The notes beneath the pieces are model-generated. The model was not told where the DNA came from. It ran no database searches and saw only the letters and a program-made list of their open reading frames with translations. A stretch of 31,133 nt of DNA. Source: Candidatus Falkowbacteria bacterium. GTDB lineage: Bacteria; Patescibacteriota; Patescibacteriia; UBA11705; JACRDX01. Shown piece by piece: positions 28,876 through 29,106 of this stretch. Where the stretch lies: positions 1 to 31,133 of the forward strand of contig JACRDX010000020.1 in assembly GCA_016212745.1 (NCBI GenBank). The letters run 5' to 3'. Numbering within the stretch: the first letter of the stretch is position 1; each line of letters begins with the position of its first letter. Both the position numbers and the translations under genes were made by a program.

Positions 28876-28903
28876 TTGACAAAAGTTTTTTGTTTGTTAA
28901 GAT
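28876..28903 (+). promoter_or_regulatory. sigma70 promoter of the candidate structured RNA
   Basis: TTGACA-16 bp-TAAGAT with TGn extension. Confidence 0.65.
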
Positions 28904-28916
28904 GATTTGATGACTT

Positions 28917-29106
28917 GGGGCGCGAGATTGCCCAATCGTAAGGCATAGTTAACGATCCCTCCTACGCTAACTTGTGTTCTTATGATGGGCAATCTCGCGT
29001 TCTTTTGTCTCGTGTGGTCGCGTGTTGATTGTGGTTGCTTCGGAGGGCAAGCCCTCCTTGTGTTAGCTTGTGTTCTTATGATGGGCAATCTCGCGCCCGG
29101 TTTTTT
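28917..29106 (+). ncRNA. Candidate ~190-nt structured non-coding RNA
   Basis: Perfect 16-bp 5'/3' closing stem (28918-28933 / 29083-29098), 29-nt direct repeat (28971-28999 / 29067-29095), G-U pairs favouring the plus strand, U-run at 29101-29106. Confidence 0.6.

Follow-up and report, generated by a model that had tools for sequence, protein, structure and literature searches.

A candidate small RNA gene of a conserved CCCUCCU-loop family in Patescibacteria, with a partial duplication of its 3' arm in one lineage

Results

The locus and its gene neighbourhood

The window analysed here, a stretch of 31,133 nt, is contig 2 of a 660-kb genome (G000; 74 contigs, completeness ~90%) of a CPR/Patescibacteria bacterium, and its sequence occurs in groundwater metagenome runs; a relative from the same genus has been filed as a Candidatus Falkowbacteria MAG (L061). 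Every gene neighbouring the element of interest lies on the minus strand: der (29810-31108), pth (29221-29820), a gene of the PD-(D/E)XK-3 type (28296-28676), dprA (27164-28321) and a gene of the Mur-ligase family. The element itself, a putative RNA gene, is oriented on the plus strand and occupies the gene-free stretch between the PD-(D/E)XK gene and pth, with which it is convergent. In the taxonomic order to which the window belongs, the RNA gene is located between pth and dprA, antisense to both, and a genome search detected a single copy of it in G000.

Two further hairpins flank the gene. A minus-strand orphan terminator hairpin (28834-28860), situated just upstream of the promoter and outside the RNA, matches the stretch found just downstream of a 101-aa ORF that is present in the same-genus genome G001 and absent from the window genome. 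Between the RNA gene and pth, a two-way terminator-like hairpin with the TTATTCACAACCCTC repeat motif was found at 29127-29166. The G000 genome is, in general, rich in palindromic repeats. A minus-strand promoter-like site at 28900-28872 was taken as a chance occurrence, since the orphan terminator would lie directly in the path of its transcripts.

Anatomy of the RNA gene

The gene is preceded by a sigma-70-type promoter (28876-28903) composed of TTGACA (28876-28881), a 16-nt spacer and the extended -10 element TGtTAAGAT (28895-28903), with 10 matches in the 12 hexamer positions in addition to the TG, and transcription is predicted to start near position 28910. After a short 5' leader, the 5' arm of a long helix (28918-28954) leads to the apical 10-nt loop AUCCCUCCUA (28955-28964), which carries CCCUCCU at 28957-28963, and the proximal 3' arm (28965-29002) completes a hairpin of ~85 nt that constitutes the whole RNA in G001. 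The base of this helix is closed at the proximal arm by G-U pairs (UUC), not by G-C pairs (CCC), and the hairpin is followed by the degenerate U-rich tail UUCUUUUGU (29000-29008), where G001 has CCC plus UGUUUUGUUUUUU; the UUCUUUUGU tail is possibly a weak first terminator.

Downstream of this point, the window carries a 96-nt insertion that was observed in no other lineage; it is placed between the hairpin and its terminator and supplies a second copy of the 3' arm. The insertion comprises a lineage-specific spacer of ~60 nt (29003-29063) with a small hairpin, GGAGGGC-AA-GCCCUCC (29042-29057), sequestering a second CCCUCCU (29052-29058), and the distal 3' arm (29064-29098), a duplicate of the proximal arm that ends in CCC as the hairpin of G001 does. 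The final intrinsic terminator is completed by a U-run at 29101-29106 (element 29099-29107). All the elements described in an earlier note on this DNA lie where that note had placed them: promoter, 5' arm and U-run, the pair of alternative 3' arms and the two copies of CCCUCCU.

The distal closure, described in the earlier note as a perfect 16-bp helix, is in fact one position longer: 28918-28934 and 29082-29098 are 100% complementary over 17 nt. The proximal arm offers the same 5' arm a 100% complementary partner as well (28921-28934 against 28986-28999). The two 3' arms share a direct repeat of 32 nt (28968-28999 and 29064-29095) with one A/G difference, inside which the 29-nt identical run reported earlier was recovered. 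The remaining differences between the arms, UU against CC at the helix base, are transitions that preserve G-U or G-C pairs on the plus strand, again in agreement with the earlier description. The predicted helix is continuous, with bulges of single bases only. The 201-nt plus strand folds at -85 kcal/mol, compared with -56.4 +/- 4.2 kcal/mol for its shuffles (z = -6.9), and the fold of the minus strand is weaker, at -66.3 kcal/mol.

The earlier note had found no credible ORF in this region. A small peptide starting at the ATGATG inside the 3' arm was considered and rejected: there is no Shine-Dalgarno (SD) sequence, the start codon is buried in the helix, and the product, compared by eye, is not conserved beyond the repeat.

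The nearest relatives and a check of the duplication on contigs

In G001 the gene order der-pth-RNA-PD-(D/E)XK-dprA is the same as in the window, with the 101-aa ORF in addition. From the -35 element to the end of the hairpin, the two genomes are identical at 125 of 129 positions, and within the hairpin at 81 of 82, the sole change affecting a bulged base; the flanking der/pth and dprA DNA is 79-81% identical. The promoter is kept, with TAATAT in place of TAAGAT. The RNA of G001 is ~100 nt long and has one 3' arm only, its hairpin ending in CCC and passing directly into the U-run. The same one-arm form was found in a metagenome contig from an independent groundwater study (X3), which contains the 82-nt hairpin with 0 differences, followed by "CCCTGTTTTGTTT", in flanks that differ from those of the window. 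A contig from another groundwater metagenome (X8) carries the hairpin with one difference and stops at the position corresponding to 28999. It may be added that both arms are almost fully identical within the genus, which may reflect recent transfer instead of selection.

Whether the duplication could be an assembly artefact was checked on contigs. A 308-nt Logan contig of metagenome run X1, probably the source sample of the genome, covers 28914-29221 without a difference at a depth of ~5x. Logan assemblies are built with a word size of 31 letters; the identical run of 29 nt is shorter than this word, so that at the level of contigs the duplication holds up as real. When metagenome and genome contigs were scanned for the exact two-arm pattern, only the Falkowbacteria-labelled L061 was returned, the other matches being unrelated repeats or chance occurrences.

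A wider RNA family in Patescibacteria

Three covariance models were used: R1, built from the hairpins of the window and G001; R2, built from three sequences, including that of G093; and R3, built from alignment A8, which contains 46 sequences, mostly from the order of G093. In the window's own order, the R1 search found nothing beyond the window and G001, because the genus has diverged, and R2, R3 and synteny were needed to find the other members there. At the same time, R1 gave a match of 44.5 bits in G093, a genome from another family of the class; this match has a TTGACA promoter and a U-run, and its loop, UCCCCUCCUU, is carried by a helix that differs. R2 then identified exactly one full-length match per genome in 45 of the 151 genomes of G093's order, including all 14 genomes of its genus.

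In alignment A8, CCCUCCU is invariant in the apical loop (46 of 46 sequences), while the sequence of the helix drifts freely. Compensatory changes on both sides were observed at 34 of the 36 pairs. Standard pairs are formed by 91% of the cells, compared with 34-52% when the partners are slid, and none of 500 shuffles reached the observed values. G-U cells outnumber A-C cells (159 against 48), and the strand is thereby settled. Just upstream, 43 of the 46 members have a TTGAC(A)-N15-18-TAnnnT promoter, and the alignment also contains the U-run after the helix. The 45 aligned relatives of the window are 96-101 nt long, and the second arm is absent in all of them. In this other order the gene lies directly after infC-rpmI-rplT, with rplT upstream in 43 of 45 loci, and a tmRNA gene precedes infC in the six loci examined.

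R3 gave the window a score of 68.9 bits, and further R3 matches in the window's order were obtained in G007, G024, G025 and G020. Homologues near pth, which the earlier note had proposed to collect, are widespread in this order: a hairpin with the CCCCUCCU loop is located within 1.5 kb of pth in 17 of 26 genomes, G000 and G001 included. In G024 and G025 the RNA is located elsewhere or on another contig relative to pth. The order der-pth-RNA-dprA occurs in G000, G001 and G020, and dprA adjoins the RNA in G025. A TTGACA-type promoter was present in all 15 further members of the order examined beyond G000 and G001. In most of these members the RNA is predicted to be Y-shaped, with a closing helix whose GCUUAUCAG...CUGGUAAGC core is conserved, the CCCCUCCU hairpin, a second hairpin that varies and a terminator; in the genus of the window, this Y shape is reduced to one long hairpin. 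A search of a phylum-wide sample with R3 yielded no convincing member outside the class; this search scored 26 candidates per genome and is weak evidence.

The alternative that the region has no RNA function at all, being a DNA palindrome (a mobile repeat or protein-binding site) or a two-way terminator with a duplication produced by assembly error, would draw on the abundance of palindromic repeats in this genome, on the good folding of the minus strand and on the ~5x coverage of the duplication, which probably comes from the source sample of the genome itself. It has to contend with a single copy per genome, a promoter and a U-run fixed on one strand, the 159 to 48 ratio of G-U to A-C cells, an asymmetric loop that is invariant, and an independent contig that spans the duplication without a difference across a repeat shorter than the assembler word. 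This alternative is regarded as very improbable. Judged from its sequence and that of its relatives, the region is very probably a real small RNA gene of the CCCUCCU-loop family. The window RNA is best described as a putative single-copy, plus-strand, non-coding RNA gene, running from promoter to terminator, of a conserved Patescibacteria (CPR) family that lies outside Rfam.

Two 3' arms and two predicted folds

The minimum fold of the 197-nt transcript, at -85 kcal/mol, is closed by the distal arm, and the best fold retaining the proximal hairpin has ~-76 kcal/mol; according to the model, the proximal fold would form first during transcription. The loop copy of CCCUCCU is unpaired in both predicted folds, with an unpaired probability of 0.84-0.95 for six of its seven bases and of 0.32 for the first C (28957), whereas the second copy is predicted to be paired with GGAGGG. 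The earlier note's statement that the first copy is exposed in a loop and the second locked in a small hairpin is, consequently, borne out by fold prediction.

The origin of the insertion can be traced in part. The CCCUCCU motif was probably duplicated along with the 3' arm, and the remaining spacer had no detectable relatives in the searches performed. The idea that the spacer is the decayed 5' half of a second gene copy was tried and rejected, as its local alignment with the gene's 5' half was not significant (p ~0.7).

Comparison with catalogued RNAs

The comparison with Rfam by cmscan that the earlier note had proposed, covering 6S RNA (RF00013) and the other families, returned no family match. 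No family of Rfam 15 matches the window or the loci of six relatives; at the gathering score, the only hit in the window was a tRNA located elsewhere in it. When matches were considered by E-value (up to 10 for 28650-29300, up to 1 for the six relatives' loci), only chance hairpin matches to miRNA precursors and a terminator-driven match to Spot 42 appeared. In the literature, no description was found of such an RNA, nor of a regulatory small RNA in CPR bacteria, and the listed runs that hold the sequence include no RNA run.

The earlier note had offered a divergent 6S RNA, which would bind the RNA polymerase holoenzyme, as one identity for the transcript. The long form indeed resembles 6S RNA in being a rod of ~190 nt with paired, closed ends, and no 6S RNA was found elsewhere in the G000 genome. 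However, RF00013 gave no match at E up to 10 in 28650-29300 or up to 1 genome-wide, the helix has no central bubble resembling an open promoter, and the conserved element is the apical loop, not an internal loop. The length of ~180-200 nt is not kept either, the form conserved in relatives being a hairpin of ~100 nt, as in the G001 orthologue and the 96-101-nt members of A8, or a Y shape with the conserved loop. The 6S identity was abandoned as extremely unlikely.

A similar comparison was made with the bacterial small SRP (4.5S) RNA (RF00169), which is likewise a single-copy hairpin of ~100 nt with a conserved apex; the Patescibacteria RNA differs in having neither the GNRA tetraloop nor the Ffh-binding loops. 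This candidate was rejected, as neither RF00169 nor RF01854 matched in the 26 genomes of the window's order. In these genomes no PF02978 or PF00448 domain of Ffh/FtsY was found, and a six-frame translation of G000 contained no DTAGR motif. Many CPR bacteria are reported to lack SRP subunits (PMC8080830).

Discussion

The closest functional parallels to the RNA described here are the C-rich-loop small RNAs of Firmicutes and Actinobacteria, namely RsaE/RoxS (RF01820), the C-rich hairpins of Staphylococcus aureus RNAIII and 6C (RF01066), which are trans-acting RNAs that use C-rich loops to target and mask SD sites. Like them, the Patescibacteria RNA is, by its predicted features, small, separately transcribed and ended by a terminator, and it displays in a hairpin loop a conserved C-rich motif complementary to G-rich ribosome-binding sites; with 6C of the Actinobacteria it also shares the character of a single housekeeping-like gene conserved across a large clade. 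The differences are equally clear. The RNA has no sequence or model similarity to these families, none of which gave a cmscan match, either to the region of the window searched (E up to 10) or to the loci of the six relatives (E up to 1). The known RNAs have several short UCCC/CCCC loops, whereas the Patescibacteria RNA has one CCCUCCU loop mounted on a long helix or a Y shape, and it resides in tiny genomes with weak use of SD sequences. What resemblance there is would lie in function alone.

The loop is the only part of the RNA that is invariant across orders, and the complement of its motif, AGGAGGG, is a strong SD sequence. In the proposed mechanism, the exposed C/U-rich loop would serve as the working part and contact surface of the RNA, pairing with GGAGG-type SD sequences of a subset of mRNAs and, in this way, blocking or tuning the initiation of their translation. 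The use of SD sequences is low in G000, with a weak peak of GGAG-type motifs at -13 to -9 that concerns ~8% of the genes. At the same time, (A)GGAGG(G) is located 3-12 nt before the start codon in ~60 genes of this genome, so possible partners exist. The AGGAGGG-led genes mostly encode small proteins without a Pfam family and share no common theme. The best duplex of the loop with the start regions of G000 reached -23.0 kcal/mol, no better than that of shuffled loops (-22.1 +/- 1.5 kcal/mol). One annotated gene, rpoA, has a perfect 9-nt complement at its SD sequence, and it was rejected as a conserved target, the complement being kept only within the genus. Taken as a mechanism, pairing with SD sequences has a chance of being correct that falls a little short of even.

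In G000 the 16S rRNA ends in GGACUAUCUCCUUUCU, without the usual CCUCC, and that of G025, from the same order, is similar; the tail is canonical in two genomes of the other order. Where the ribosome lacks CCUCC, as in G000, the small RNA would out-pair the ribosome's own tail on GGAGG sites, as would suit a regulator masking SD sequences. The invariance of the loop, it should be said, fits recognition by a protein as well as base pairing.

The main alternative is built on protein recognition: the loop would copy the 3' tail of 16S rRNA (canonical GAUCACCUCCUUU; here GAUCCCUCCUA) and act as a protein-binding decoy that titrates or guides a factor reading this tail. The factors that read it include Era, the nucleases maturing the 16S 3' end, bS21/bS1 and IF3. 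The sequence of the loop with its closing pair is CGAUCCCUCCUACG in the window, for the other order it is CGU(A/C)CCCUCCUUCG, and it resembles GAUCACCUCCUU; the 16S tails of G192 and G249 are GGAUCACCUCCUUUCU. An 8-nt stretch is kept invariant across orders on stems that drift, and in the other order the gene comes right after the IF3-L35-L20 operon, all of which would suit a decoy. On the other hand, genomes of the window's order have a 16S tail altered to CUAUCUCCUUUCU or ACAACUCCUUUCU, a change that the RNA loop has not followed, and the gene neighbourhood in this order indicates no binding partner. A decoy role is accordingly held to be rather unlikely.

Considered as a whole, the explanation that we find best, and reasonably probable, is that the locus holds a conserved CPR small RNA gene whose exposed C/U-rich loop pairs with GGAGG-type SD sites and which here tolerates a duplication. 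A more far-reaching version is also conceivable, in which the RNA would be a clade-wide housekeeping regulator of the start of translation, amounting to a free-standing copy of the anti-Shine-Dalgarno sequence. Such a regulator would either rival the 30S subunit in binding the small number of mRNAs with a strong SD sequence or stand in for the 3' end of 16S rRNA towards a factor of ribosome biogenesis or initiation, and it would out-pair the ribosome where the 16S tail has lost CCUCC. We regard this version as doubtful and put it forward as a speculation only. If it were true, the two-arm variant of the window would be a natural example of a kinetically trapped fold set against a thermodynamic one.

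The most conspicuous property of the window copy, its two 3' arms, led the earlier note to propose a conformationally switching small RNA able to act on SD-led mRNAs. One part of this proposal stands, namely a plus-strand RNA, running from promoter to terminator, with an exposed loop resembling an anti-SD sequence. A switch, in which the 5' arm would pair with one or the other of two rival 3' arms and the activity of the RNA would depend on the fold adopted, can appeal to the feasibility of both pairings (~-76 kcal/mol for the proximal and -85 kcal/mol for the distal one, with the proximal expected first during transcription), to the masking of the second CCCUCCU by GGAGGG and to the differences between the arms, which preserve pairing. 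But the second arm is absent in G001, in the X3 contig, which continues past the arm, and in all 45 aligned relatives, and the spacer has no detectable relatives. Neither fold pairs the loop copy of CCCUCCU; a functional switch therefore lacks support, and we consider it improbable. Because the exposure of the loop does not depend on which arm is used, and a second arm occurs in no relative, the duplication is read as a recent and tolerated rearrangement; in terms of the predicted folds, too, it looks like this and not like a designed switch.

The tolerated duplication may nevertheless have had consequences for termination. Transcripts stopping at the weakened first tail, which has UUCUUUUGU instead of CCC plus a U-run, would have the usual hairpin form of ~95 nt, and read-through would give a transcript of ~190 nt able to close with either 3' arm. 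The duplication may have weakened the first terminator and produced a mixture of ~95-nt and ~190-nt RNAs. Within this RNA family, expansions recur on the 3' side of the helix.

The window also contains a warning. Its striking pair of competing arms was seen in one lineage only, lies outside the conserved design and is probably not the functional part of the RNA. What the copy, an unusual variant, does show is the tolerance of such a gene for a partial tandem duplication.

The kind of RNA to which this one would belong, trans-acting with a C-rich anti-SD loop, is known, while the family itself is uncatalogued; a new Rfam entry for it could start from alignment A8 and model R3. The CPR bacteria make up a large share of bacterial diversity and have tiny genomes with few regulators. 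A single-copy RNA with a strong promoter, covariation across orders and an unchanging loop complementary to the ribosome-binding site is therefore a testable candidate for a core post-transcriptional regulator, or for a ribosome-linked RNA, in CPR bacteria.

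Neighbourhood of the small RNA gene

In the same-genus relative G001, a 101-aa ORF, which belongs to no Pfam family, diverges from the promoter of the small RNA (L009:1723-2112, compared with window positions 28834-28875). The window does not carry this ORF, while the stretch lying downstream of it is retained, including the terminator hairpin at 28834-28860.

The RNA gene of the window is flanked by a 26-nt inverted repeat (28786-28811 and 29145-29170), each arm of which carries a DnaA-box-like TTATCCACA/TTATTCACA followed by ACCCTC. Throughout the 660-kb genome of the window's organism, TTATCCACA occurs 42 times against 7.5 expected, and at least 14 copies of a longer, hairpin-type motif, GGGT...TTATCCACAACCCTCAATTT, are located at gene ends. 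In the other order, the same TTATCCACA (≤ 1 mismatch) is situated directly upstream of the −35 element of the RNA at 17 of the 45 loci. Together with the window copy, which is distant from the RNA and lies on the opposite strand, this amounts to 18 of 46 loci, compared with ≈ 1.8 expected. The element could be the site of a regulator, or it could serve as the terminator element for the rplT operon lying upstream.

A perfect 14+14 palindrome, GTAGAGACAATTCA/TGAATTGTCTCTAC, is located at the end of pth (29197-29224). Its summed contig depth reached ≈ 57–1700 in four unrelated metagenome runs, compared with a depth of ≈ 5 for the surrounding sequence in X1, the metagenome run holding the locus; the palindrome was found on many short contigs with differing flanks. 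It looks like a widespread REP-like element. Three pth matches from the window's order, in G006 (L180), G008 (L187) and G007 (L190), contain one or two in-frame stops (TAA or TAG), for which palindrome insertions, errors or broken genes are possible explanations.

Note that G007 carries, besides the CCCCUCCU-loop RNA adjoining pth, a second long hairpin of ≈ 97 nt (L120, contig 3, 6342-6438), scored at 44 bits by R3, the covariance model built from the 45 other-order loci and the window. The loop of this hairpin is GCCUCCUCCUC, and no U-run follows it; the hairpin may be a diverged paralogue of the small RNA.

16S rRNA tails and SRP components

The 3′ tail of 16S rRNA in the window's genome is GGACUAUCUCCUUUCU (contig 67, L068:1440-1560, minus strand), and that of G025, a member of the same order, is GGAACAACUCCUUUCU, so that the canonical CCUCC is shortened to CUCC in both genomes, whereas GGAUCACCUCCUUUCU is retained in the tails of two genomes of the other order (loci of the comparison, L144–L146). 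Shine–Dalgarno-like motifs formed a weak peak ahead of the starts of ≈ 8% of the genes in the window's genome.

None of the 26 genomes of the window's order yielded a match to SRP RNA (RF00169, RF01854) or an SRP54-type GTPase, and the Ffh M domain was detected neither in these genomes nor in 151 sampled phylum-wide. The DTAGR motif is likewise absent from the window's genome. SRP subunits are reported to be missing in many CPR bacteria (PMC8080830).

Locus in the other order

The arrangement tmRNA–infC–rpmI–rplT–small RNA is conserved in that order (loci L073, L087, L093, L099, L108, L117 and 37 more), with the tmRNA gene present in all six of the loci scanned with Rfam. This conserved arrangement places the RNA among translation genes in that order.
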